From an uncultured Actinomycetes bacterium (GTDB lineage Bacteria > Actinomycetota > Thermoleophilia > Solirubrobacterales > Thermoleophilaceae), in NCBI GenBank assembly GCA_963724205.1, contig CAVRTK010000004.1, forward strand, positions 303,830 through 367,829: DNA of 64,000 nt, read 5' to 3'. Made by a program: the position numbers and the translations under genes. Numbering within the stretch: the stretch's first letter is position 1; every line of letters starts with the position of its first letter. Of this stretch, positions 3,897 to 39,102 are shown piece after piece. Below the pieces are notes generated by a model, which worked only from the letters and a program-made list of their open reading frames with translations, had not been told where the DNA came from and did no database searches.

Positions 3897-6726
3897 TTCG
3901 CCGCCAGCCAGTTGTCGCCGGTGCCGAAGTCGACGGCCAGCGGCGGGTCCAGGTCGTAGGCGGCGATCATCTCCCGGCAGACGATCTCGGCCGACCTGAT
4001 CGGCCTCGGCCTCGGGCGCCTCGAACAGCAGCTCGTCGTGGATCTGGAGGACGAGCCGCGCCTGGAGCCCCGCGTCGGCGACCGCCCGGCGCGAGCGGAC
4101 CATCGCCACCTTGATGATGTCGGCCGCCGTGCCCTGGATGACCGTGCTGATCGCCAGCCGCTCGCCGAGCAGGCGGGTCTGGCGCTGGCGAGCGCGCAGC
4201 TCGGGGATGCGGCGCATGCGGCCGAACAGCGTCTTGACGTAGCCGTTCTCCTTGGCGAACTCGATCGTCGACTCGATCAGCTCGTTGACCTTCGGGAAGC
4301 GGCCCAGGTAGCGGTCGATGAACTCCTGCGCCTCGTCCTGGGGGATGTCGAGCCGGTCGGCGAGCCCGTAGGCCGACAGCCCGTAGACGACGCCGAAGTT
4401 GAACATCTTCGCCTTCGACCGCAGCCCGGGGTCGACCTGGTCGGGGGTGACGCCGAACAGCTGGCCGGCGGTGGCCGCGTGCACGTCCTCGCCGCGGGCG
4501 AAGATGTCGCGCAGCACCTGCTCCTCGCTGATGTGGGCCAGGATGCGCAGCTCGACCTGCGAGTAGTCGGCGCGACACGAGCAGGTTGCCGGGCTCGGCG
4601 ATGAAGCACTCGCGGATCTCGCGGCCCAGCTCCGTGCGGATCGGGATGTTCTGCAGGTTCGGGTCGGTGGACGACAGGCGGCCGGTGGTGGTCGCCGTCT
4701 GGTTGAACGTCGTGTGCAGGCGGCCGGTCTTGTCGGAGATCAGCTCGGGCAGCGCGTCGAGGTAGGTCGACTTGAGCTTCGAGTACTCGCGCCACTCCTC
4801 GATCTTGGGGATGATCGGGTGCTCGGAGCGGATCGCCTGGAGCACGCGCGCGTCGGTGCTGAAGCCGGTCTTGCCGCGGCGCTTCTTCGTCAGGTCGAGC
4901 ACGTCGAACAGGACGTGCGAGAGCTGCTGCGGCGACCCGATCGTGAACGGCTCGCCGGCCAGCTCGTGGATCTCGCGACTCGAGCTCGGCGATGCGCGCC
5001 TCGACCTTGGTGGAGATCTCGGCCGAGCCGCCGCGTGTCGAGCTTCACGCCGTGGCGCTGCATCTCGACGAGCACGTCGACGAGCGGCAGCTCGACCTCG
5101 TCGAACAGCCGGGTCAGCCCCTCCTCCTCGAGCCGCGCGCGCTGGCGCTCGGCGATCACGCGGGTGACGACCGCGCGCTCGGCCAGCTCGTCGCCGCCCT
5201 CGACGTTGGCGGCCAGGCCCTCCTGCTCGGCCAGCTCGCTGCAGCGGGTAGCCGCGCCGCGCCGGGTCGATCAGGTAGGCGGCGACCATCGTGTCGTGCT
5301 CGAGCGGCGGCGCCTGCGACGGGTCCTCGGCGCTGGCGATCGTCTTCCAGTCGTGGGCGACGAGCGGGCGATCGCCCCAGGCGAGCGTGAGCGCGGCGAG
5401 GGTCTCGGCCTCACCGGTCAGGACCTCGGCGCCGCCGTAGGCCGCGAACCTGAGCGTCGGCGCTGCGCAGGCCGCCGTCCTCCTCGCCCAGCGCGAGCTG
5501 AGCGGGCTCGCCCTGCGGAGCGGGCGGGCTGGTCTCGGCCTGCGGCTCCTCGGCGGTCAGCGTCAGCTCGGCGTCGAGCTCCGCGTCCAGGCGCTCGAGC
5601 TCCTCCTCGGCGGCCTCGCCCTCGGCGAGCATCTCGGTCAGCTCCTCCGCGGCCGGCTTGTCGGCCGACGCGCCGGCGGCGGGCTCGGCGCCGTTGCTGC
5701 CGTCCAGCAGCGGGCGCTCGGCGGCGAGCGTCAGCAGCGTTCCGGTCAGGCGGCCGATCTCGGCGGCGGGGACCTCGTGAGCGGTGGCCTCGACGACCTC
5801 GCGAGGCGCGCTCGCGCGGGGCGGCCTCCTCGGCGTCGCCCATCGCCTCCTCCAGCCGGCGCAGCGGGTCGCGCAGCTCGAACTCGCGGAACACCTCGCG
5901 CAGGCGCGCGCGGTCGGGCTCGCGGGCGATCGCGTGATCCAGGTCGACCTCGACGTCGACGTCGCGGACCGCGGTCGCGAGCTTCATCGACATGCGCGCG
6001 TCGTCCGCGTGGTTGGTCAGGTTCTCCTTGCGCTTGGCGCCCGGAGATCTCGTCGATCGACGACAGCACGCCCTCCAGCGACGCCGAACTTCTGGAGCAG
6101 GTCGGACGCGGTCTTGTCGCCGATGCCGGGGACGCCGGGGATGTTGTCGCTGGTGTCGCCCTTCAGGCCGTAGAAGTCGGGGATCAGCTCGGGGCCGATG
6201 CCGTAGCGGTCGATCACGGCCTGCTCGTCGTAGATCTTCGTCTCGGTGATGCCGCGGCTCGTGGCCATCACCTTCACGCCGTCCTCGATCAGCTGGAACA
6301 GGTCGCGGTCGCCGGTGACGACCATGACCTCGATGCCCTTCTCCCGGGCCTGCTTCGTGACGCGTGGCGATGACGTCGTCGGCCTCGTAGCCGGGGACCT
6401 TCACGTTCGTGTAGCCGAACGCGTCGACCAGCGGCTGCATGTGCGGCCACTGCTCGCTGAGCAGGTCGGGGCGCTCGCGCCGGCCGGCCTTGTAGTCCGT
6501 GGAGATCTCGTCGCGGCCGGACATGCCGGCGTCCCAGACGACGAGCGTGGGCTTCGGGCCGTACTCCGTGAGGATCTTCACGAGCATCGACGCGAAGCCG
6601 AAGATCGCGTTGGTCGGGAAAGCCCTTCGAGGTGGCGATCGTCTCGGGGAGCGCGAAGAAGGCGCGGTAGACGAGGCTGTTCCCGTCGATCAGGAACAGC
6701 TCGCGCGGGGATGCTTCAGGCGGCAC
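3893..6726 (-). CDS. polA: DNA polymerase I, with at least five frameshifts
   Basis: 5'-3' exonuclease N-terminus (MPPEASPRELFLIDGNSLVYRAFFALPE; GYEADDVIAT), Klenow-like middle, and polymerase motifs (RRAAKTINFGLVYG-like FGVVYGLSAYGL; LQIHDELLFE) are distributed over at least six ORF fragments in three frames. The C-terminal end ...DFGTGDNWLAAK* is reached only after a 1-nt correction near 3995. Confidence 0.85.
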
Positions 6727-7716: not shown

Positions 7717-9160
7717 ATGGCCTCGATCCCCAGCGCACAGTTCTCGCTGACGCTTCGCGTCGTGCTCGACCGGCGTCCCGGCGCGCTCGCGCGCCGTGGC
7801 CAACGCGATCGGCGACGCCGGCGGGTCGATCGGCGCCGTCGACATCATCGACCAGCGCGAGCACGAGACCGTCCGCGAGCTCACCGTCGACGCCACCGAC
7901 TCCGACCACTGGGACCGGATCGTCGCCGCGGTCGAGCAGGTCGCCCGCGGCCAAGCTGCTGGAGACGACCGACCGCACGCTCGAGCTGCACCGCGGGGGC
8001 AAGCTCTACACCGGCATGAAGAGCGGGATCAAGACCCGCGACGACCTGTCGATGGCCTACACGCCCGGCGTCGCGCGCGTGTGCCTGGAGATCGAGGCCG
8101 ACCGCGAGAAGGCCCACGAGTACACGATCAAGAAGAACTCGGTCGCCGTGGTGTCCGACGGCACCGCGGTGCTCGGCCTGGGCGACATCGGCCCCGAGGC
8201 GGCGATGCCGGTCATGGAGGGCAAGGCGGTCCTGTTCAAGGAGTTCGCCGACGTCGACGCCTTCCCGATCTGCCTGGACACCAAGGACCCGGACGAGATC
8301 GTGGCGATCGTCAAGGCCCTCGCCCCCACGTTCGGCGGCATCAACCTCGAGGACATCTCCTCCCCGCGCTGCTTCGACATCGAGAACCGGCTGATCGAGG
8401 AGCTCGACATCCCCGTCTTCCACGACGACCAGCACGGCACCGCGATCGTCGTGCTGGCCGCCCTCCTGAACGCCTGCCGCCTGACCGGCCGCCGCATCGA
8501 GGACCTGCGCGTCGCGATGGTCGGCGCGGGCGCCGCCGGCGTGGCCGTCGCGCGCATCCTGATGAGCTCGGGCGTCACCGACATCGTCGCCGCCGACCGC
8601 CGCGGGGCGATCCACCAGCGACCGCCCGGACTACGGCGACGGCACGATGAACACGCCCAAGGTGTGGCTGGCCGAGCACACCAACGGCGAGCCGCCGCGG
8701 CGGCACGCCGGCCGAGATCCTGGAGGGCACCGACCTGTTCATCGGCCTGTCCGGGCCGGGCATCGTCACCGCGCGGGACCTGGAGCGCATGAACGCCGAC
8801 CCGTTCGTGTTCGCGATGGCCAACCCCACGCCCGAGGTCGCGCCCGAGGAGGCGCAGCCCTACGCGCGCGTGATGGCCACCGGGCGCTCGGACTACCCGA
8901 ACCAGATCAACAACGTGCTCGCCTTCCCCGGGATCTTCCGCGGCGCCCTCGACGTGCGCGCTCCGAAGATCACCGAGGAGATGAAGCTCGCCGCCGCCCA
9001 CGGCATCGCGTCGGTCGTGCCCGACGACGAGCTCTCCGAGGACTACATCGTCCCGAGCGTCTTCAACCGCGACGTGAGCCAGGCAGTGGCGGCGGCCGTA
9101 GCCCATGAGGCCGAGCGCAGCGGAGTAGCGCGCGGCGCGGCCACGCTGACCACGCACTAA
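7717..9160 (+). CDS. NAD(P)-dependent malic enzyme with N-terminal ACT domain, frameshifted
   Basis: ACT-like N-terminus ([25 protein letters not shown]...[17 protein letters not shown]), then malic-enzyme core ([20 protein letters not shown]; [25 protein letters not shown]; [18 protein letters not shown]; [12 protein letters not shown]) and C-terminus ([19 protein letters not shown]). Spread over four ORF frames. Confidence 0.85.
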
Positions 9161-11727: not shown

Positions 11728-12558
11728 TCAGCCCTGCTTCCCCAGGTAGGCCTCGACGACGCGCGGGTCGGCGCGGACGTCGTCGGGCAGACCCTCGGCG
11801 ATCTTCTCGCCGTGGTCGAGGACGGTCAGCCGCTCGGACACCCCGAGCACGACCTTCATGTCGTGCTCGATCAGGAGGATCGTCAGGCCCTGCTCGTCGC
11901 GCAGGCGGATCATGAAGTTCTTGAGGCGGTCCGACTCCTGCGGGTTCATGCCGGCGGTGGGCTCGTCGAGCAGCAGCAGCTTGGGCTCCGACACCAGCGC
12001 GCGCGCGATCTCCACGCGGCGCTGGTCGCCGTAGGAGAGGTTGACCGACGACCTCGTCGAACACGCGCTTCTGGAGGCCCACGAAGTCGAGCATCTCGCG
12101 CGCCAGCTCACGAGTCTTCCACTCCTCGCGCGAGGTCATCGGCGGCCGGATGATCGACCGGAACAGGCCCGCCCTCATGCGCGAGTGGTAGCCGACCATC
12201 ACGTTCTCGACGGCTGTCATCGTCCCGAACAGGCGGATGTTCTGGAACGTGCGCGCCACCCCGAGCGCCGTGATCTGGTCGGGCCGGCGCCGGGTGATGT
12301 TCTGGCCCTCGAAGGCGATGAGGCCGACCGTCGGCTTGTAGAGCCCGCTGAGGATGTTGAAGAACGTGGTCTTGCCCGCGCCGTTCGGCCCGATGATCGA
12401 CACGATCGAGCGCCGCGGGATCGCGAACGACACGTCGTTGACGGCGATCAGGCCGCCGAAGCTGCTTCGTGATCGCTGACCGCCTCGAGGATCGGCGCGG
12501 CTTCCGTCGCCGCTCCAGGCTCGCTCGCGCCGCCGACCGCTGTGGATCCACTCGTCAT
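11728..12558 (-). CDS. livG: branched-chain amino acid ABC transporter ATP-binding protein LivG, frameshifted
   Basis: IIGPNGAGKTTFFNILSG Walker A; LSYGDQRRVEIARAL signature; LLLLDEPTAGMNP. Its ATG overlaps the livM stop (ATGA). Three ORF fragments. Confidence 0.85.
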
Positions 12559-20507: not shown

Positions 20508-21674
<1,167 letters not shown>

Positions 21675-21699
21675 GCGGCCTCCTGCGGCGCGTCGGGGT

Positions 21700-22372
21700 C
21701 GCGGGGCGCGGCTCAGGCTCGGGCGGCGCCGGCGGCGCGTGCTCGGCATCGACCTGCTCGACGGCACGGAAGAACGCGGTGAGCTTCGCGTGGTCCTTGC
21801 GGCCGGGCGACGCCTCGGTCCCGCTCGCGGTGTCGACCGCGTACGGATGCGTGGCGTGCGATCGCCGTCGCGCGACGTTGTCCGGGTTCAGGCCGCCGGA
21901 GAGGATCAGCGGCACGTGGCGCGTGTGGTGGCGGACGTAGTCCCACTGGAACGTCTTGCCCGGTGCCGCCGCGCTGCCCGGGCACGTAGGCGTCGAGCAG
22001 GTGGAAGTCGGTGTGGAACGCGCTGAGGCGGCGGACCGCGGCGGGGTCCTTCGCCGGGATCGCCTTGATCACCCGAGCGCCGGTGCGCCGCGCGACCTCG
22101 CGCGCGTACGCGGGACCCTCGTCGCCGTGGAGCTGCACGGCGGTCAGATGAGCGACGTCGGCCAGCTGGGCAACCTCCTCGAGCGGCGCGTTCACGAACA
22201 CGCCCGTGACCTCGACCTGGCGCGACAGCTCGCGCCCGATCCGCTCGGCGTCAGCCACGTCGACCTGCCGCGGGCTGTCGGCGAAGATCAGCCCGACCGC
22301 CCACGCGCCGAGCTCGACGGCGGCCCGCGCGTCGTCGAGGTTGGTGATGCCGCAGATCTTCACGCGCGTCAT
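21700..22372 (-). CDS. trpF: N-(5'-phosphoribosyl)anthranilate isomerase, frameshifted; 3' end uncertain
   Basis: MTRVKICGITNLDDARAAVELGAWAVGLIF...TAVQLHGDE; C-terminal PYAVDTASGTEASPGRKDHAKLTAFFRAVEQ in a second frame. Confidence 0.75.
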
Positions 22373-27123: not shown

Positions 27124-28081
27124 CTACAGCGCCGGGACTCGCTCGAGGACGTCGCGGACGACGTCGGCGCGGCTCGTCCCGGCGGCCTCGGGAGCGAGCA
27201 GCAGCCGGTGGGTCAGCACCGCCGGGCGCGAGCGCCTGCACGTCGTCGGGCAGCGCGTGGTCGCGGCCCTCGAGCGCGGCGCAGCGCCTTCGCCGCCTTG
27301 AGCAGCATGAGCCCCGCGCGCGGCGAGGCGCCGAGCTCGGTGCGCGGGTCGCTGCGCGTCCCCTCGAGCAGCGCGACGACGTAGCGGCGCAGCGGCTCGC
27401 TGGCGTGCACCCGGCCGGCGGCGATCTGCGCGGCCAGCACCTCGGCGACGTCCGGCGACCGGCTCGAGATCGAGCACGCGGTCGCCGCGCGGCGTGCTCG
27501 GCGAGCATCTCGACCTCGGCGTCCGGCCCGCGGGTAGCCGAGCGACACGCGCACCATGAAGCGGTCGAGCTGCGCCTCGGGCAGCGGGTAGGTGCCCTCG
27601 TACTCGACCGGGTTCTGGGTGGCGACGACGAGGAACGGGCGGGCCAGCTCGTGCGAGTGGACGTCGACGGTGACGCGCCGCTCCTGCATGCACTCGAGCA
27701 GGCCGGACTGCGTCTTGGGCGACGCGCGGTTGATCTCGTCGACCAGGACGATGTTCGCGAACACCGGGCCCGGGCCGGAACTCGAAGCGGCTCTCGCGCT
27801 GGTTGAAGACGTTGGTGCCGACCACGTCGGAGGGCAGCAGGTCGGCGGTCGCCTGGATGCGCGCGTACTCGGCGTCGACCGAGCGGGCGAGCGCGCGGGC
27901 CAGGGCGGTCTTGCCGACGCCCGGGTAGTCCTCGATCAGGACGTGGCCCTCGGCGACCAGCGCGACGATCACCTCGCGCAGCACGCGCGGCGTCGACCTT
28001 GACGGCCGCGCCGACGTTGGCGGCGATGCGCTCGCCGAGCGCGGCGACGCCGGCAGGGTCGAGCTCAGGGACCGTCGACAT
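27124..28081 (-). CDS. moxR: MoxR-family AAA+ ATPase, frameshifted
   Basis: [11 protein letters not shown]...[31 protein letters not shown] (Walker A); [19 protein letters not shown] (Walker B/sensor); [25 protein letters not shown]. Three frames. Confidence 0.85.
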
Positions 28082-28189
28082 CTCCCATGGCATGGTACGT
28101 GGCCGTGGGCTCACGCGGCTTGCCGGTCCTGGGTGGCCAGTTCCCGCCGCCCGTCACCCGCGGCCTCGTCTACATTTCATCGGTTCTGT

Positions 28190-30915
28190 CTGTTCCAGCT
28201 CACATCCGATTGGCGTCTCCGGCTCGAGGACCGGATCTGCCACCTCGAGACGCCCTACGACGAGGCGCTCGTCGCCGCCGTGCGCTCGATCCCGGGCCGG
28301 CTGTGGGACCGGTCGGGCGGGCGCTGGTCGGTCTGGCTGACGCCGGACCGCGCCTGGTCGGTGCTCGGCTGACCGAGCAGTTCCCGCAGCTGGCCGAGGA
28401 CCCCGAGCCGATCGACGGGCCTGCAAGCGCGAGGCCGGGCTGCGCAGCACGGACCGCTACGACCTGGAGCTCGTCATGCCGCGCCGCGACGGGCCTCACT
28501 GCCTGAGCCTGTGCGACGACTGGCACGACCCGGAGCTCGACGCGCTCGTCGCCGCGCCACGAGGTGATCCGCCATCCCGCCGCCGGGCGGATCAGCGTCG
28601 TCCTCGGGCACGCCGCCGCGCACGAGGTGGAGCAGGCTGTCGCGCCGCGACGACGTCCGCCTGTCGCGGCGGCTGGCCGAGCACATCGAGATCCTCACCG
28701 GGTCGGCCGCCGACTCGATCGCGGGCGACCGGCGCGACGAGGGCCGGACGTCGATCCGCTTCGGCTCGCGCCGCCACGAGGTGCTGATCACCACCGCCCA
28801 GGCCGACACGTTCGCCGCCGAGCTGCCGGGCGTCGACGCGCACGGGCCGCTACCGCGTCGTCGCGCCGGTCAACACGCCGGTGGCGATCGCGCTGGCCAA
28901 GCTGCTGTCGCGCGACCGCGAGGCCGACGTCGCCCACGCCGTCGCGGACTGGCTGAAGGTCGCGACCCGCTGGAGCGGCCGCGTCGGCGCCACCGAGCGC
29001 GAGGGCGTGCCCGTGTGGACGGTCAGCGGCAACGGCGCACCGCCGCCGAAGGCGCTCGAGGACCCGGCGTTCACGCTCGTCGGCACGGACTACTGGGCGA
29101 CGCCGATCAACGGCGCCGGCCGCGACGGCGCTGATGGCGCTGCTGCGCGAGGAGCCGCTCACCCGCGTCGACATGCGCGCGCAGCGGTCGCTCGACTGGG
29201 CCGAGGAGCACCCGGACGAGCCGCCGCCGCCGGCGATGATCTTCGCTGTCCGAGGACGAGGAGTCCGGCGAGCGCGAGCTCGTGCTCGAGGAGCTGTGGG
29301 GCATCGGCCTGGCGCGCCGAGTTCGCGGCGCTGCCGGGCGCGCGCGACGGCCGTCCCGCCGTGGTGGCCGACGCCTGGGCGCCCGACTACGTCGACGCCT
29401 TCGTCGCGCGACAACGACATCCGCCTGGACGACCGGCGCGCAGGAGCTGCTCCACAAGCTGCTGGTCGAGCACGCGGAGGCCGAGGAGCTCGTCGCGCTC
29501 TCGCAGGCGACCGAGGCCGACCTGGACCTGCCCGCCGACCTGGGCGGCGAGCTGATGCCGTTCCAGGCGGCCGGCGTCCGCTACGCGCTGCGCCGCCGGC
29601 GGGCGTTCATCGCCGACGAGCAGGGCCTCGGCAAGACCGTCCAGGCGCTGTGCCGCGATGGAGTGCGAGGAGGCCTACCCGGCGATCGTCGATCTGCCCG
29701 GCGTCGCTCAAGCTGAACTGGGAGCGCGAGGCGAACAAGTGGCTGCCGTCAGCGGCGCACGGTCGTCGTCTCGGGCCGCAAGCCCGTCGACATGAGCGAG
29801 GCCGACATCGTGATCGTCAACTACGACGTCGTCGGCCCGCACGTGCGGCAGCTGGCCGCGCCTGCGCGCGAAGGCGCTCGTCCTCGACGAGTCGCACTAC
29901 TGCAAGAACCCGCGGCGCCCAGCGCACCAAGGCCGTGGCCGAGCTGGCCGAGGCGCTGCGGCCCGACGCGCTGCTGCTGGCGCTGACCGGCACGCCGCTC
30001 GTCAACCGGCCGAAGGAGCTCGTGCCCCAGCTGCGGATCCTCGGGCGGCTGGGCGCGTTCGGGTCGGGCGCGGAGCTCGAGCGCCGCTTCGGCGCGAACA
30101 CGGAGCGCGAGCGCCTGCACTGGCACCTGCGCCGCACCTGTTACGTGCGGCGGCTGAAGAAGGACGTGCTCCCCCAGCTTCCGGCCAAGCGGCGCGCGGT
30201 CGTGCCGTTCGACCTGTCCAACGAGCGCGAGTACCGCCACGCCGAGCGCGACCTGCGCGCCTGGATCTCCGAGCGCTTCTCGTCGTCGGAGGAGCTGAAG
30301 TCGCGGGTCGACTCCGCGATGCGCGCGGAGGCGCTCGTGAAGGTCAACGCGCTGCGCCAGCTCGTCGGCGTCGGGCAAGCTGCACGCCGCCCACGCGTGG
30401 ATCCAGGACTTCCTGGCGAGCGGCGAGAAGCTCGTCGTGTTCGCCGCCCACCGCGCCGTCCAGCGCGACCTGATGGAGCGCTTCCCCGACTCCGCCCACA
30501 TCCTCGGCGACGACACCCCGGCCGAGCGCGACGCGCAGGTCAGCCGCTTCCAGACCGACGACGACGTGCAGCTGTGCATCTGCTCGCTGAAGGTCGCCGC
30601 GCACGGCTTCACGCTGACCGCGGCCTCCGACGTCGCGTTCCTCGAGCTGGGCTGGACGCCGGCCGAGCACGACCAGGCCGAGGACCGCGCCCACCGGATC
30701 GGCCAGACCGACTCGGTGACGGCCTGGTACCTGCTGGCCGCGGACACGATCGACGAGCGGATGGCGGCGCTGATCGACTCGAAGCGCGAGGTCGTCGGCG
30801 CGGTCACCGACGGGCGCGTGCCCGTCGACGCAGTCGATGATCGACGGGCTGCTGGCCAGCTACGTCGGCACGGGGTCGCGGGGATGTCGACGCCGCGAGC
30901 GGCCCACAAGGACTG
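28190..30915 (+). CDS. SNF2-family (RAD54-like) helicase with N-terminal ~350-aa extension, heavily frameshifted (at least eight frames)
   Basis: Helicase motif I LMPFQAAGVRYALRRRRAFIADEQGLGKT; Ia PASLKLNWEREANKWLP; II LVLDESHYCKNP; III LALTGTPLVNRPKEL. C-terminal helicase domain (VVFAAHRAVQRDL...SLKVAAHGFTLTAASDVAFLELGWTPAEHDQAEDRAHRIGQTD). The start position is approximate. Confidence 0.8.
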
Positions 30916-30930
30916 ACCCTGGACCAGCGG

Positions 30931-31375
30931 TCAGGCGCGCTCGGCGGCCTCGACGGCGCTGCCGAGCGCTGCCAGATCGTCGCCCGTCAGCCGCTCCTCC
31001 AGCAGCACGAACAGGTGGCGCTCCTCATAACGGACGTGCGCGGCCAGAAGCTCGCCCAGCTCGCGAGCCGCGTCCGGGGACACGCCGGGCGGTGAGGCCA
31101 GCAACGCCTCGGCGCGCGCCCGGATGTCACCGTGCTCGCGGCGGACCCGGTCGCTCGCCTCGCGCCAGTCGGGGTCGTCGCTCCGGCAACGCGGGCAGCA
31201 GGATCGCCTCCTCGATCCCGAAGTGCCGCTCGCCCGCGCCGCGCCAGAACTCGCCGAAGCGCGCAACGGCCGCGGCGACGGTGTCCGGGTCGGCCCGGCG
31301 CAGGCGCAGCGCCGCCTCGAGCGCCACGTGGTGGTCGCGCGAGAGCGGCGCCAGCTCGGGCGACCGCTTCACGGC
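30931..31375 (-). CDS. hemerythrin HHE cation-binding domain protein, frameshifted
   Basis: N-terminal part (LSRDHHVALEAALRL...HFGIEEAILLPAL) and C-terminal part (REHGDIRARAEALL...HVRYEERHLFVLLEERL) in two frames. H/E-rich helices typical of the hemerythrin-like di-iron fold. Confidence 0.65.
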
Positions 31376-31376
31376 C

Positions 31377-32194
31377 TCAGCTCTCGCGGTCGGGCACGCG
31401 CGACAGCTCCACGTGCCCGTTGGGCTGCTCGGCCGTTGCCGCCGGCGCCGACACGCGGTCAAGGAACGGCTGGAGCAGGTCGAGCGGCAGCGGGAACACG
31501 ATCGTCGAGTTCTGCTCGGCGCCGATCTCGAGCAGCGTCTGGAGGTAGCGCAGGTGCAGCGCCGACGGCTCGCGGCCGATGATCGCCGCGGCGTCGGCCA
31601 GCTTCTCGGCGGCCTGGAACTCGCCCTCGGAGTTGATGATCTTGGCCCGTCGCTCGCGCTCCGCCTCGGCCTGGCGGGCCATCGCCCGCTGCATCGCCTC
31701 GGGGATCTCGACGTCCTTGATCTCGACGGTCGAGACCTTGATCCCCCACGGCTCGGTCTGCTCGTCGATGATCTGCTGCAGATCCTCGTTCAGGCGCTCG
31801 CGCTCGGACAGCAGCTGGTCGAGGTCGGCGCGCCCGAGCACCGAGCGCAGCGTCGTCTGCGCGATCTGCGACGTGGCCGGCTCGAACGCCTCGATCTCCG
31901 TGACCGCGGCGACCGGATCGATCGCCTTGAAGTAACAGACGGCCGCGACGCGTGCCGGGACGTTGTCGCGCGTGATCACCTCCTGCGGCGGGATCGTGAG
32001 CGTGACGGTGCGCAGGTCGACGCGCACCATCCGGTCGACCAGCGGGATCAGCAGCACCAGGCCCGGGCCCCTTGACCGGCAGCAGGCGCCCGAGGCGGAA
32101 CACGACCGCGCGCTCGTACTCGCGCAGGACGCGGATGCTGACGAGCGCCGCCAGCAGCACCACCAGGACGAGGCGCAGCGAGGACGTAGATCAT
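31377..32194 (-). CDS. SPFH/band-7 (stomatin/prohibitin-like) membrane protein, two 1-nt indels near the 5' end
   Basis: AGGAGG RBS 10 nt upstream of the ATG at 32194. After removing one base about 32160 and one about 32055 it reads [65 protein letters not shown]...; the coiled-coil tail [25 protein letters not shown] is typical of the family. Confidence 0.8.
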
Positions 32195-32699
32195 CGGAAG
32201 GGTGCCTCCTGGTTCGACGCATGCGCAACCCGTGCGAAGGCGTGGGCTCCGGGAAGCCCGCCGGATGCGCACGCAGGTCGCGCAGCATCCAGCGGCCCAC
32301 CCCAAGCATGACCGCGATCAGCGCCAGCAACAACGCGGCTTCGGCGGGATCGTGGTTTCTCACGCCGCCCACCGTCAGGACGAAGACCGCCAGCGCCAGC
32401 AGCATCAGGGCGATCCCGCGGTGGAAGCGCCCCGCCTCGGAGTGCGGCCACGGGTCGAGCGGGCGCACGATCTCGCGACCCACGTCCGAGTCCGTGCACC
32501 TGTCCTTGCGCGGGCACCCGTTGCAGATGTGGGCCTTCGCCCGGTAGCGGACCAGCCGGCGCTCGTGGTCGAACTCGTGGGGCCACAGGTGCTGGCCCTC
32601 CGGGCACGTCCAGTGGTCGTGCACGTCGTCGTAGTCAAAGCCCGCCGTCCGGAACCGAAGCGCCCGCCGGTGCGTGTGCGCCGACAGCCACTCGAGCAT
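32195..32699 (-). pseudogene. chimeric ORF: IS1182/IS5-type transposase zinc-ribbon fragment followed by two hydrophobic segments (transposase remnant)
   Basis: [19 protein letters not shown]...[32 protein letters not shown] matches the F.YD...D.Y.CP.G..L ... YRA....C..CPL...CT.S..GR.I.R signature of the internal region of IS1182-type DDE transposases. No DDE domain is present. Its frame runs into the SPFH gene. Confidence 0.4.
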
Positions 32700-32756
32700 G
32701 AGCGCCGCCAGCAGCAGGAAGCACGCCGTAGCCCGCGAACAGGAGGGCCTCCCCGC

Positions 32757-35094
32757 TCATGTGGTGGTCCTGGCCGCCGTGGCTCCGCTGTCGCCTGCCG
32801 CGCCCACGCCCGCCGGCTCGGTGATGTCGGTGAACAGGATGTCCTCCGGCTCCTCGAGCGTGACCCGCTTGACCGTGTGGCGTATGCCGACGAACGCGAT
32901 GTAGAGCACGGGCACCGCCCCGGCGCCGATGAAGATCATGTCGCCCGGCAGGCGCAGCCATTCGATCAGGGTGTTCGTGTCGTTGGTCAGGAACTCGAGC
33001 TCGACGCGCTTCCCAGTAGCCGTCGCCGACCGACTTGTAGAGCTGGAGGATGCCGAGCGGCAGGAGCGTGGCGAAGCACATCCACGCCAGCCCGAGGTTG
33101 GTCCCCCAGAACGCGATCCGGGCCCACTTCTCCGGCCATCTCTCGGCGGGGATCAGGTAGCGCAGGCAGAACATCGCGAGCCCGATCGCGAGCATGCCGT
33201 AGACGCCCATCATCGCGGCGTGGCCGTGGTTCGCCGTGAGCGCGGTGCCGATCTCGTAGTACGAGACGATCGGCAGGTTGATGAGGAAGCCGAAGATGCC
33301 GGCGCCGAGGAAGTTCCAGAACCCGACCGCGACGAGGAACATGACCGCCCAGCGGTGCGGGAACGGCGTCTTCGACCTGGACTCCTGCGCCGCGCCGAGC
33401 TGCAGGAACGACCACGCCTCGACGGTCAGGAACGTCAGCGGGATCACCTCGGCGGCCGAGAAGAACGCGCCGAGCGCCATGTGCTCGGCGGGCTCGCCGG
33501 AGAAGTACAGGTGGTGCATCGTGCCGATCACGCCGCCCGCCGAGTAGAGGAGGATGTCGAGGAACACGACGGTCAGGGCCACGCGCTCGCGGACGACTCC
33601 GAGCAGCACGAACATGTAGGCGACCATCACGGTCGTGAACAGCTCGAGGAAGTCCTCGACCCAGAGGTGGACGACCCAGAAGCGCCAGAACTCCGTGACC
33701 GTGAAGTGGTCGCCGGTGCGCGCGATCAGGCCCACGGCGTAGAAGGCCGGTATCGCCAGCGCGGCCAGGAAGAACAGCCACGGCATGTTGGTCGGGTGCT
33801 CGGCCTTGAGCCGGCCGCGCAGGACGCGGAACAGCATGAAGACCCAGACGAACAGGCCGATCGACAGCAGCACCTGCCAGATGCGCGCCAGGTCCAGGTA
33901 CTCGAAGCCCTGGAGGCCGAACCAGTTGGAGGCAGCGCCCTCCAGCACGCCGTGCACGCCGAGGAACGAGCCGATCAGCGTCCCGAACACGACGACGGCC
34001 AGCGCGCCGAGCAGCGCAAAGGCGAGCTTGCCCTGATGCTTCGGCTCGCGCCGCGCGATCATCGGCGCGAGGAAGATCCCGGCCGCGACGAACGCGGTGG
34101 CCACCCAGAACAACGCGAGCTGCACGTGCCAGGTGCGCATCAGGTTGTAGGGGAAGACCGCGGCCAGGTCGAAGCCGAAGAAGTCGGTGAGGTCGGCCCG
34201 GTAGTGCTGTGACGCCGCTCCGACCATCGTCTGGATCAGGAACAGCGCGGACATCGTGAAGAAGAACCAGGCGGTCGCCCGCTGGGCGGGGGTGAGCGCG
34301 ACGTCGCCGGGCTCGCGGAACGACAGCGTGGCCTGCTCGCGGCCGTGCCAGCCGAGGAAGTTCCAGCGTCCGAAGGCCCCGAACAGGAGGCCGATGCCGC
34401 CCAGCAGCGCGATCAGCGACAGGACCGACCAGACGACGACGTTGGCCGTCGGCTTGTTGTCGACGCGCGGCTCCGACGGCCAGTTGTTCGTGTACGAGTA
34501 GTCGTGGCCGGGACGCTCGGCGGCGGATGCCCAGGCGGTCCAGCCGAAGAACGCGGTGAGCTGCGCGAGCTCTCTGCGATCGGTGATCGCCTTCTTGCGC
34601 AGGCCGTTCTTGGTCGTGGGCTCGGCGAAGAAGCGCGAGTAGTAGGCCACCAGGCGGCGGTGGGCCGCGGCCTGCGGCGCCGTCAGCGTGAGCGTGCCGG
34701 TGCGCTCGTCGTAGCGGTTGGTGCGGAAGTCATCGATCGTCCGCCGCGCGGCGCTGTCCGACCGCGCGCCGCCGTACGAGCGCTTCACGAAGTCGGACGA
34801 CCGGCGGAGGTAGTCCGCGGTGAAGTCCGGGCCCAGGTAGGCGCCGTGACCGAAGGCGGAGCCGTACTCCATCAGCCCGTTGTGCAGGAACACCTGCTGG
34901 CCCTTCGAGACGTCGTTCTTCGTGTAGACGACCCGGCCCTGCTGGTCGACGACGCGGTCGGGGATCGGCGGCTTGGCGTCGTAGGTGCGGTACGCGAGCA
35001 GGCCGAGCACGAAGAACCCGAAGAGGACCACGAGCAGGACTGCCTGCACCCAACCCTTCGCGATCAACATCTGACGCCGGCCGGAGCTCTCCAC
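32757..35094 (-). CDS. norZ: nitric-oxide reductase, quinol-dependent large subunit (qNOR), one frameshift near the 3' end
   Basis: 779-aa heme-copper-oxidase-like body with an N-terminal periplasmic extension. Conserved His ligands (HLYFSGEP; ANHGHAAMMGVYGML). Real C-terminus MIFIGAGAVPVLYIAFVGIRHTVKR... in a second frame (ORF 32757–32939). Confidence 0.9.
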
Positions 35095-35144
35095 GAATTC
35101 CCTCCTCGGAAGACCGGAGGGACGGTTTTACACCACCTGGCCGA

Positions 35145-35954
35145 CTACGTCAGGCCTGCGTCGGCTCTTCCGAGCCCGACAGCTCGCGCACCGCGGCCTC
35201 GGGATCGGGCGCCCGCATCACGGTCTCGCCGATCAGGACGGCGTCGACGCCGACGCGCTCCAGCTCCTCGATCTGCGCGCGGTTCTGGATGCCGGACTCC
35301 GACACGACGGTCTTGCCGGCGGGGACGTCGGTCAGCAGCTCGTAGGTCGTCTCGAGCGAGACCGTGAAGTCGACCGAGGTCGCGGTTGTTGATCCCGACC
35401 ACGTCGCAGTCGATCTCGAGCGCGCACTCGAGCTCCTCCTCGTCGTGCACCTCGACGATCGCGTCCAGGTCGAGGTCGTCGGCGATCGCGTGCAGCTCGC
35501 CGAGGTCGCGGACCTTCAGCGACCCGACCACCAGCAGAACCGCGTCCGCGCCGTACGCCTTGGCCTCGTACAGCTGGTACGGGTCGATCGTGAAGTCCTT
35601 GCGCAGGATCGGCAGGTCGGTCGCCGCCCGCGCCTCGCGCAGGTCCTCGAGCGACCCGCCGAAGTGGCGCTCCTCGGTGAGGATCGACAGCGCCGCCGCG
35701 CCGCCGCGGTCGTAGGCCCGGACCACGTCGGCCACGCTCGCGTCCGGCCGGATGTCGCCCGCGGAGGGGGAGCGCCGCTTGTACTCGGCGATCACCGACG
35801 TCCACGGCCGGGACAGGGCCTCCGAGAACGGCCTGCCCTCGAGCGTCATGCGCTGCTCGATCGCGCGCTCGAGCTCGGCGAGCGGGCGCTCGCGCTTGAC
35901 GCGGTCCAGCCGGTCGCGCGTCGAGTCGATCAGGTCGTCGAGCCGTATCGCCAT
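35145..35954 (-). CDS. trpC: indole-3-glycerol-phosphate synthase, C-terminal frameshift about 35390
   Basis: RPFSEAL...VIAEYKRRSPSAGDI; ALSILTEERHFGGSLEDL; LPILRKDFTIDPYQLYEA; VGINNRDL. Confidence 0.85.
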   Translation of the reverse strand: MAIRLDDLIDSTRDRLDRVKRERPLAELERAIEQRMTLEGRPFSEALSRPWTSVIAEYKRRSPSAGDIRPDASVADVVRAYDRGGAAALSILTEERHFGGSLEDLREARAATDLPILRKDFTIDPYQLYEAKAYGADAVLLVVGSLKVRDLGELHAIADDLDLDAIVEVHDEEELECALEIDCDVVGINNRDLGRLHGLARDDLRAADRRPRRQDRRVGVRHPEPRADRGAGARRRRRRPDRRDRDAGARSRGRGARAVGLGRADAGLT

Positions 35955-37564: not shown

Positions 37565-39062
37565 GCCCACTCCCGCTGCCTGCAGGCCAGCTCGATGGCG
37601 GCCATCACGGCCCCGGCCTTCGCCTCGGTCTCGCGCACCTCGTAGTCGGGCTCCGAGTCGACGACGATCCCGCCCCCCGCCTGAAGGTGCACGCGCCCGT
37701 CCTTGACGACCGCGGAGCGGATGTAGATGCACGAGTCGAGGTCGCCGGAGTAGGACAGCCAGCCGATCGCCCCTCCGTAGGGGCCGCGGGACACGGGCTC
37801 GAGCTCGTCGATGATCTGCATCGCGCGGACCTTCGGCGCGCCGGACAGCGTCCCTGCCGGGAGCGACGCGCGCATGGCGTCCATCGACGTCACGCCGTCG
37901 CGCAGCGTGCCGGACACCGACGAGACGATGTGCATGACGTGCGAGTAGGTCTCGACGACCATCAGCTCGTCGACCTGGACGCTGCCGTACTCGCACACCC
38001 GGCCCAGGTCGTTGCGGCCCAGGTCGACCAGCATCACGTGCTCGGCGCGCTCCTTGTCGTCGGCCAAGCAGCGACTCGGCGACGCGCATGTCCTCCTCGA
38101 CGGTCGCCGCCCGCGGGCGGGTGCCGGCGATCGGCCGCTGGGCGGCCCGCCGGCCGGTGACGGTGCACCAGCGACTCGGGCGACGCGCCCGCTATCTCGA
38201 AGTCCTCGAAGTCGAGGAAGTACATGTAGGGCGACGGGTTGACGTTGCGCAGGCCGCGGTAGATCGAGAACGCCTCGACGGGCGTCTCCGCCGACCAGCG
38301 CTGGCTCGGCACGACCTGGTAGGCGTCGCCCGCGCGGATGTACTCCTTGACCCGGTCGACCGCCGCGGCGTAGCCGTCGCTTCCGATGTTCGACTCGAAC
38401 GCGGGCATGTCGCGCACGCCCGCCTGCGCCCGGGGCAGCGGCCCGGCCAGCCGGTCGCGGACGTCGGCGATGGCGACCACCGCGTGCGCGTACGCGGTCT
38501 CCACGTCGGAGTCCGGGCCGGTGAAGACGTTGGCCAGGATCGTGGTCTCGTGCTTGAAGTGGTCGAACGCCACGATGATGTCGGAGACCATCAGCGCCAT
38601 GTCGGGGACGCCGACCGGGTCAGGGTTCGGGTCGCCGACCGTGGGCTCGGCGTAGCGCACCAGGTCGTAGCCGAACAGGCCGACCGCGCCGCCCGAGAAC
38701 GGCGGCAGGTCGGGCAGCGGAGCGGGCTTGTAGCGCTCCAGCTCGGCCGCGACCGCCGCGTAGGGGTCGTCGAACGGCCGCGTCTCCCCGCCCACGGTCA
38801 GCACGCCGTGCTCCAGCCGCATCGTGGTCCGCGGCTGGACGCCCAGGAACGACCAGCGCCCGACGCGCTGCCCCTGCTCGGCCGACTCCAGCAGGAACGA
38901 CGGGCCGTCCCCGCGCAGCTTGAGGTAGGCGGACACCGGGGTCTCGACGTCGTCGATGAACGTGTGCCGCAGCGGGACGACCGTGTGGTCGCGCGCGAGA
39001 GCGCGGACCTCGTCGAGGCTGGGGCCTACCTGGAGGTCGGCCGTGTCGGCGCTCGGGATCAC
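37561..39062 (-). CDS. trpE: anthranilate synthase component I, frameshift about 38080–38160
   Basis: N-terminal 340 aa and C-terminal 168 aa ([20 protein letters not shown]...[20 protein letters not shown]...[22 protein letters not shown]) are in different frames. Confidence 0.85.
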
Positions 39063-39102
39063 GCGGCGATTCTAGGTCGATCGTGAGCCACCGGCCGATA
39101 TC

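Follow-up and report, generated by a model that had tools for sequence, protein, structure and literature searches.

A conserved second gene for a predicted zinc-ribbon membrane protein in the qNOR operons of Thermoleophilia and of bacteria from other phyla

The operon and the frameshifts in its deposited sequence

The window analyzed here is a stretch of 64,000 nucleotides on contig CAVRTK010000004.1, a Thermoleophilia contig from an uncultured bacterium. Its G+C content is about 72%, and coding frames can be read across it from the G+C content of third codon positions (GC3). On the minus strand, between 35094 and 30931, it encodes in order a quinol-dependent nitric oxide (NO) reductase (qNOR, gene norZ), a small membrane protein with a predicted zinc ribbon that we call ZnTM, an SPFH/Band-7 protein, and a hemerythrin-like di-iron protein. 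The conserved core of this operon is the qNOR-ZnTM pair.

The norZ gene runs from a GTG start at 35094 to a TGA stop at 32759-32757 and encodes about 778 residues once a single frameshift is repaired. A spacer of 55 nt (35149-35095, minus strand) separates it from the trpC stop codon at 35152-35150, and this spacer contains the sequence GAGGAGGG, within which a GGAGG Shine-Dalgarno motif precedes the GTG. ZnTM (32760-32191, about 189 residues, with an ATG start and a TGA stop) is set between the qNOR and SPFH genes; its start and the qNOR stop overlap by 4 nt as ATGA. The same ATGA arrangement joins the ZnTM stop to the start of the stomatin-like SPFH gene (32194-31377, about 272 residues after repair of two frameshifts), whose ATG also has GGAGG in front of it. 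The hemerythrin gene (31372-30931, about 146 residues in a single domain) begins with GTG 5 nt past the SPFH stop. The block probably forms one tightly packed, translationally coupled operon, norZ-ZnTM-SPFH-hemerythrin, of a soil Thermoleophilia bacterium. An earlier interpretation made from the letters of this DNA, here called the sequence-only reading, listed three minus-strand genes at 30931-35094. It had their kinds and their strand right, but it overlooked ZnTM as a fourth gene, and none of the genes is an intact open reading frame (ORF) as deposited.

Six frameshifts of 1-2 nt lie within the deposited block, as judged from the tblastn frames of homologues and from the DNA. The frame of norZ changes near 33000, where high-scoring segment pairs from tblastn lie in frame -2 up to 32995 and in frame -3 from 33002. 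ZnTM contains a compensating pair, near 32721 and 32220, seen in its translation and in the DNA. Homologue frames and the DNA place two further changes in the SPFH gene, near 32172 and 32063, and one in the hemerythrin gene, near 31180. Homologues from other genomes match the window in two to three frames per gene, and a mechanical ORF list returns a qNOR with an out-of-frame tail followed by a 440-residue chimera of ZnTM and SPFH. The 779-residue qNOR of the sequence-only reading is obtained only when one of these frameshifts is repaired. A protein in the public databases (P0393, from NCBI/ENA) is identical to the chimera residue for residue, out-of-frame stretch included, so the indels are already in the public record and the errors have spread into protein databases. 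Metagenome-assembled genomes (MAGs) from long reads, when rich in frameshifts, yield chimeric database proteins of which this is one example.

Breaks of the same sort occur throughout the window, which has at least about 18 cases of abutting same-strand segments in differing frames. Split genes include polA (4002-6620), trpB and trpF (21004-22372), moxR (27276-28074), the gene for an SNF2 helicase (29134-30916), trpC (35171-35945) and trpE (37567-39068), along with livG, htrA and the malic enzyme gene; other frame-broken examples lie at 7751-9082 and 11731-12466. Pfam domains end or begin exactly at the frame boundaries in three of these genes. The IGPS match in trpC runs out with the final residue of its segment, at profile position 189 of 254, the AAA_3 match in moxR begins only at profile position 58, and the PRAI match in trpF ends at profile position 130 of 193. 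Sister contigs, likewise assembled from long metagenomic reads, show similar splits. In the correct frame GC3 is 0.91-0.98 on both sides of each shift, no in-frame stops appear beyond the shifts, and amino acid identity to relatives is equally high on either side.

Because essential genes are affected at the same rate, and because identity and GC3 remain high across the shifts, the six frameshifts are very probably technical, that is, consensus errors of long-read assembly rather than signs of gene decay. A decaying, non-functional remnant, with six genuine frameshifts and genes that have become pseudogenes in this lineage, would explain why every gene of the block is frameshifted and why the shifts are present in the public record. 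The same logic would have to extend to polA, trpE, trpC, trpB, trpF, livG and many other genes broken at similar density, which is incompatible with a living cell. The sustained GC3, the lack of further stops, the even identity to relatives, and the split genes of the sister contigs likewise speak against decay, which we consider very improbable. One stretch outside the block, at 28100-29550 on the plus strand, covers the start of the SNF2 helicase gene and the DNA upstream of it; it has an ambiguous frame structure and no Pfam match at 28881-29555; it may be the frameshifted N-terminus of the SNF2 helicase.

The qNOR-ZnTM pair

The repaired qNOR matches Pfam models PF22085, NorB_cytochrome_c-like (residues 37-198, 7e-54, 183 bits), and PF00115, COX1 (3e-53, 182 bits). 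Residues 12-727 align end to end with solved qNORs, scoring 535 bits against the enzyme of Alcaligenes xylosoxidans, 499 against that of Geobacillus and 498 against that of Neisseria, compared with only about 100 for the NorB subunit of cNOR. In these alignments the ligand motifs TWH(321), HLWVE(475), HH(526) and HGH(622) are all kept. CXXCH is absent, and the first cysteine comes no earlier than residue 643, which leaves no heme c site. By every feature that a sequence can test, the protein is a member of the qNOR family, and the sequence-only reading was right to call it a quinol-dependent NO reductase with conserved histidine ligands.

The solved enzymes from A. xylosoxidans, Neisseria meningitidis and Geobacillus stearothermophilus (PDB 6QQ5, 6FWF and 3AYF) have the same heme-free cytochrome-c-like domain fused to a heme-copper-oxidase core, and they share with the window protein the ligand motifs for heme b, heme b3 and FeB, at 498-535 bits over the full length. 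The difference lies in the company they keep. Each was purified as one polypeptide and the clusters are described as norZ only, whereas the clade to which the window qNOR belongs is almost always coupled to ZnTM. The sequence-only reading held that the absence of norC fits a single-subunit qNOR; it missed the partner gene.

The genomic neighborhoods of related qNORs were collected in a scan at one genome per species, from which the 80 best qNOR loci were taken, and neighbors were called by tblastn and phmmer. The qNORs of these loci are 67-87% identical to that of the window and come from Thermoleophilia (Solirubrobacterales, Thermoleophilaceae, Gaiellaceae, Rubrobacteraceae), Acidobacteriota, Verrucomicrobiota and Chloroflexota. 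By tblastn, ZnTM is immediately downstream of qNOR in 79 of the 80; the last, L072, has a member of the same blastp cluster. The start of ZnTM overlaps the stop of qNOR by 4 nt in 60 of 78 loci, and in 13 more the gap is -1 to 16 nt. Look-ups anchored instead on ZnTM, from three other clades, find qNOR directly upstream on every contig that is long enough. In this qNOR clade, then, the pairing of qNOR with ZnTM is near-universal, reciprocal and coupled, in Actinomycetota, Acidobacteriota, Verrucomicrobiota and Chloroflexota alike.

Hydropathy and a structural model describe ZnTM as an N-terminal membrane helix, a four-cysteine zinc ribbon, and two further membrane helices that form a helical hairpin. 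The loop after the first helix begins with an arginine-rich stretch, and a beta-rich segment then carries four invariant cysteines in the pattern CP-x25-C-x2-C-x5-C. The segment WPHSE..RFHRG, before the hairpin, is also invariant. The full set of invariant residues, which holds across four phyla, consists of E4, Y11, H28, R32, GF, W50, C52-P53, YR, C79-N80, C82, K85, C88-TDS, GR, W104 and FHR, and length is fixed at 170-205 residues. By the positive-inside rule, the ribbon should be cytoplasmic and the N-terminus should face outward. The AlphaFold (AF2) model is confident (pLDDT 82, pTM 0.70) and shows three long helices and a beta-rich ribbon; comparison with solved structures gave no informative match.

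The ribbon has recognizable relatives among transposases. Residues of about 30-105 match positions 347-422 of the NCBIfam model for IS1182 transposases (E 4e-12, 45.7 bits against a cut-off of 270), and Pfam returns a marginal match to PF13751 (transposase DDE, 25.6 bits). The region is homologous to that part of the IS1182 transposase, within its DDE_Tnp_1_6 region, but ZnTM lacks the DDE catalytic core and has the ribbon set between membrane helices. These two partial matches, together with the name "Transposase DDE domain" used in some sources, might suggest that ZnTM is a mere fragment of an IS1182 transposase that happens to sit after qNOR. Only 76 of the 488 model positions are matched, however, at a score far below the cut-off, which does not make a full-length DDE transposase. 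A chance fragment is also at odds with the three membrane helices, the fixed length, the invariant residues in four phyla, and the recurrence of the same position and the same 4-nt overlap in 60 of 78 genomes. The conservation data refute a reading of ZnTM as transposase debris, and we give the fragment explanation next to no credence. On its homology the ribbon is best described as an exapted sub-domain of an IS1182 transposase, and ZnTM as neither a transposase nor a mobile element.

Plasmids with qNOR homologues (n=199) include none with a ribbon-type ZnTM, and a search of the plasmid collection with ZnTM as query returned IS1182 transposases as the only matches. The sole actinobacterial plasmid qNOR, from Streptomyces sp. 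NBC_00271, is 66.6% identical to that of the window. It is followed, again with a 4-nt overlap, by a ZnTM homologue of 129 residues that has no ribbon, yet keeps the N-terminal MxxE....Y helix, the WPHSEAHRFH segment and the hairpin (hhalign probability 96.7%, E 4e-10). Since the ribbon is absent and the membrane part is kept, the three-helix membrane part appears to be the conserved core of the family and the ribbon an insertion.

The Streptomyces locus itself (L090, plasmid NZ_CP108071.1, 22137-34116) has an Rrf2 regulator and a group III truncated hemoglobin upstream of qNOR and ISL3 and IS110 transposases on its flanks. The locus resembles a mobile module for NO, carried by a host that can be cultured.

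The ZnTM family is large, with more than 4000 clusters at 90% identity scored as candidates and about 297 representatives at 50% identity and E<=1e-10. The names its members carry are only "hypothetical" or, mistakenly, "transposase", "RcnA" or "glycosyltransferase". In one homologue of 276 residues (P0001), the internal part that begins at the end of the ribbon and includes the first hairpin helix is duplicated in tandem, a feature that is either real or an assembly artefact. Literature searches for an accessory or downstream partner of qNOR found none, in open-access text only, so that the absence of a report is not proof. The reductase is an ordinary qNOR, but its operon has a conserved second gene that we could not find described in the literature searched, and the SPFH and hemerythrin genes are lineage-specific additions to the pair.

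SPFH and hemerythrin genes and the genomic setting

The SPFH protein matches Pfam model PF01145, Band_7 (2e-39, 135.7 bits). After frame repair it has a hydrophobic N-terminal membrane anchor, in which MIYVLAA matches the intact orthologue P0392. Domain and anchor are shared with prokaryotic stomatins of stomatin-NfeD pairs and with HflK/HflC. Unlike those systems, the window has no NfeD partner, since the four genes fill 30931-35094 without a further ORF, and scores against the NCBIfam models for HflK (75.7, cut-off 159.4) and HflC (44.6, cut-off 134.4) fall far below cut-off, while the orthogroup is coupled to qNOR-ZnTM. A full-length SPFH gene stands next to ZnTM in 7 of the 80 qNOR loci. 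Orthologues, 82-90% identical, were seen only inside qNOR operons, both in these 7 of 80 qNOR-anchored loci and in 3 of 3 look-ups anchored on SPFH, and the usual junction is an overlap of stop and start by 4 nt. The latter three, all on long contigs, show qNOR-ZnTM-SPFH with 4-nt overlaps, and one of them also has hemerythrin. The association of SPFH with qNOR in the sequence-only reading therefore recurs, and it is specific in the direction from SPFH to qNOR. SPFH proteins assemble into oligomeric scaffolds that surround their clients in the membrane, and the occurrence of this orthogroup only in this operon suggests a qNOR-ZnTM complex as its client.

Short degenerate SPFH stretches lie directly downstream of ZnTM in three more loci (L004, 7483-7566; L015, 13022-13153; L047, 12947-13111), which fits decay of a former SPFH gene. 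In the qNOR tree, loci with SPFH or hemerythrin are scattered among loci without them. The scattered distribution and the remnants together fit an old three-gene arrangement in Thermoleophilia with repeated loss of SPFH. In other clades the gene after ZnTM is a different one: a DUF488 gene in an acidobacterial-type locus, and a DUF4149 gene overlapping the ZnTM stop in Rubrobacter-like loci (L081, 5523-6038; L083, 5597-6064; also L084 and L085). What occupies the third place in the operon thus varies, and alternative accessory proteins may be encoded there.

The hemerythrin matches PF01814 (1.6e-13, 51.7 bits against a cut-off of 25.3), and the ligand pattern DHH...HxxxE...H...HxxEE is conserved in 11 sequences, those of the window and ten relatives. 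With the metal-ligand set H...HxxxE...H...HxxxE present, the protein is by its sequence a member of the HHE domain family. It had been taken for a hemerythrin of the RIC/YtfE type. That assignment fails, as this single domain of 146 residues has no ScdA_N domain in Pfam and matches no RIC model in NCBIfam at E<=0.1. Comparison with PDB sequences gave no match at E<=1. Hemerythrin genes adjoin the operon in 10 of the 80 loci, downstream in five and upstream in five, and the roughly 1 Mb of flanking DNA yielded no hit at any other place.

The sequence-only reading stated that neither SPFH nor hemerythrin is a canonical member of nor operons. A precedent had been overlooked in the norA-norB operons of Cupriavidus necator and Ralstonia solanacearum, where a di-iron NO-binding protein encoded beside qNOR has been linked to the relief of NO stress; this protein, NorA, is a member of the YtfE/RIC/DnrN family, and norA has a binding site for the sigma-54 activator NorR (PMC9045102). 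The window resembles these operons in pairing a qNOR gene with one for a di-iron protein of the hemerythrin fold. NorA, at about 220 residues, has an N-terminal ScdA_N domain. The window hemerythrin differs as a single HHE domain without a RIC match, which accompanies the operon in 10 of 80 relatives, sometimes upstream and sometimes downstream of it. It would thus resemble NorA in role, not in family.

The operon lies within a split set of tryptophan genes. The genes trpE-G-D-C occupy 39068-35150 and trpF-B-A 22372-19897, with about 13 kb of unrelated genes between them, namely the qNOR operon, a convergent SNF2 helicase gene, a MoxR-DUF58-TgpA set, and HtrA. The gene just upstream of qNOR is trpC, encoding IGPS, and trpF, encoding PRAI, is at 21959-22372. 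The description of the block as lying between trpC and trpF is loosely true, although SNF2, MoxR-DUF58-TgpA and HtrA, some 9 kb, intervene as well. None of the 80 relatives has trpC, trpD or SNF2 beside qNOR, so the position of the operon within a split trp cluster is lineage-specific. The MoxR-DUF58-TgpA genes (24.3-28.1 kb) were considered as an FeB chaperone like NorQ/NorD and rejected. They are of the AAA_3, DUF58 and TgpA types, which we take to be distinct from the NorQ/NorD types; they lie beyond the convergent SNF2 gene; and they do not recur beside qNOR in relatives.

The sequence-only reading joined qNOR, SPFH and hemerythrin in a horizontally acquired island for NO detoxification and repair, with a single-subunit qNOR, an SPFH scaffold, and a RIC-like hemerythrin that repairs Fe-S clusters. 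All three genes are indeed present and co-oriented, the SPFH orthogroup is seen only in qNOR operons, hemerythrins are enriched beside the operon, and the position next to trpC is unique among the 80 relatives. The comparison across genomes does not bear out a conserved unit. The three genes occur together in only 2 of the 80 loci, and the order qNOR-ZnTM-SPFH-hemerythrin in one, L010, whose sequence runs colinear with that of the window for 4.1 kb (79% nucleotide identity). Links of SPFH and of hemerythrin to qNOR do recur, but the two genes are a minority elaboration of qNOR-ZnTM and not part of a conserved three-gene module. The island also leaves out the conserved fourth gene and calls for a RIC architecture that the hemerythrin does not have. 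As for acquisition, which was thought probable, positive support is missing: the G+C content and GC3 of the block equal those of its flanks, a search for flanking repeats gave only low-identity chance matches, and no mobile-element genes adjoin the block. We consider the acquired three-gene island unlikely.

As the sequence-only reading had stated, no regulator gene of the NsrR/NorR type lies in or next to the block. It had suggested a check for an NsrR or Rrf2 motif upstream of 35094; neither an NsrR/Rrf2 gene at the block nor a recognizable operator in the 55-nt spacer was found, although no formal NsrR motif model was run. A scan of 30700-35500 for sigma-70-like sites found none, and Rfam has no match at the block. 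Transcription may come by read-through from the trp genes or from a weak internal promoter. Patterns resembling DosR sites (GGGAC-N4-GTCCC) or FNR sites (TTGA-N6-TCAA) show nothing consistent upstream of qNOR in the window or in 74 relatives.

Relatives offer a different arrangement. Ten loci, among them L002, L003, L004, L006, L008, L012, L020, L024 and L030, have the near-palindrome AACTACGTAATT 97-147 nt upstream of qNOR, mostly at -107 to -110; it is absent from the whole window. A divergent LuxR-type response regulator lies immediately upstream at several of them (L002, L003, L004, L006, L008, L020 and L030, for example), in many cases with GAF histidine kinases and universal stress proteins in the vicinity. 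Genes that recur beside qNOR in the 80 loci include LuxR-type regulators (17 ORFs), histidine kinases with GAF domains (8) and universal stress proteins (19), and other relatives have a Crp/Fnr or Rrf2 regulator nearby (Rrf2 in L083 and on the Streptomyces plasmid). None of these genes is found in the window. The arrangement of LuxR-type regulator and AACTACGTAATT in relatives looks like a DosR-like regulon for hypoxia or NO.

A proposed role for ZnTM

The window qNOR, judged from its sequence, should reduce NO to N2O with quinol. We propose, with moderate confidence, that ZnTM, made in a fixed ratio with the reductase through translational coupling, acts as a dedicated small membrane subunit of qNOR or a factor in its assembly or stability. 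Its three-helix membrane core would contact qNOR, and the zinc ribbon in the cytoplasmic loop would add a lineage-specific function such as metal handling, regulation or docking, in which the conserved histidines could share. In a subset of Thermoleophilia, the operon-specific SPFH protein would corral or stabilize the qNOR-ZnTM complex in the membrane, and the small di-iron hemerythrin, by analogy with NorA, would bind NO or O2 in the cytoplasm.

Small membrane subunits are familiar in related enzymes, CcoQ being the small subunit type of cbb3 heme-copper oxidases. For NO reductases the precedents are NorH, the third subunit of the Thermus thermophilus cNOR (norCBH), and NorE/NorF of cNOR clusters (PMC12067857). 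Like ZnTM, NorH, NorE/NorF and CcoQ are small, clade-restricted membrane proteins encoded directly after a catalytic subunit, and they are thought to be structural or stabilizing rather than catalytic. ZnTM differs from them in having a four-cysteine ribbon and in accompanying qNOR instead of cNOR, and no sequence relation was detected with Pfam or NCBIfam.

ZnTM might instead be a regulator or sensor. As a membrane-anchored zinc-finger protein, it could sense NO or redox state through its zinc-thiolate center or its histidines, in the manner of zinc-binding anti-sigma factors, and tune the activity or expression of qNOR. Four invariant cysteines and invariant histidines in a domain predicted to be cytoplasmic would suit such a sensor, as would the derivation of the ribbon from a transposase and the lack, among relatives, of any one consistently adjacent regulator. 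Against this, ZnTM comes with no partner sigma factor and has no DNA-binding domain; the 4-nt overlap implies that the two proteins are made in stoichiometric amounts, as would be uncommon for a regulator; and the Streptomyces homologue that has lost the ribbon retains the membrane core, which locates the conserved function in that core. In view of the stoichiometric coupling and of the homologue without a ribbon, we rank a regulatory role below that of subunit or assembly factor, and regard it as quite unlikely.

A more far-reaching reading, which we consider possible but somewhat less likely than not, is a large clade of mainly soil phyla in which qNOR is no single-subunit enzyme and works as a complex with ZnTM, the three-helix core binding the reductase and the ribbon having been captured from an IS1182 transposase, with some Thermoleophilia adding an SPFH cage and a di-iron hemerythrin. 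Several observations weigh against the roles proposed here. Solved qNORs are single-chain homodimers, a 2025 paper gives the qNOR cluster as norZ alone (PMC12067857), and qNOR has been treated as a single fused subunit (bioRxiv 10.1101/2021.10.15.464467); the clusters described here are not norZ alone, ZnTM being coupled by the 4-nt overlap in the window and in 60 of 78 relatives. Proteobacterial qNORs (41-47% identity), including those of three plasmid loci at 43-47%, lack a small gene coupled to them, so the general chemistry of qNOR can proceed without ZnTM. A maturation factor or a regulator would account for the conserved coupling just as well. About 88% of related loci lack SPFH and hemerythrin, no promoter or regulator for the operon was identified in the window, and the window rests on a single assembly, in which real pseudogenisation could have occurred.

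Enzymes of the qNOR type are a major biological source of the greenhouse gas N2O and a main route of NO detoxification. Mechanistic work on them rests on a few proteobacterial, Neisseria and Geobacillus enzymes, seen as one gene and one subunit. Most relatives of the window qNOR were found in Thermoleophilia and Acidobacteriota MAGs; Verrucomicrobiota and Chloroflexota contribute a few, and several are labelled as soil. If the qNOR of this clade does need or use a second protein, then heterologous expression, activity measurements, structural models and the annotation of NO reducers by their genes would all change. ZnTM would clearly exemplify the recruitment of a transposase sub-domain to a respiratory complex, and the SPFH scaffold would gain a defined client. 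For the scanning of genomes, an un-named gene within a "known" operon can be its most informative part.

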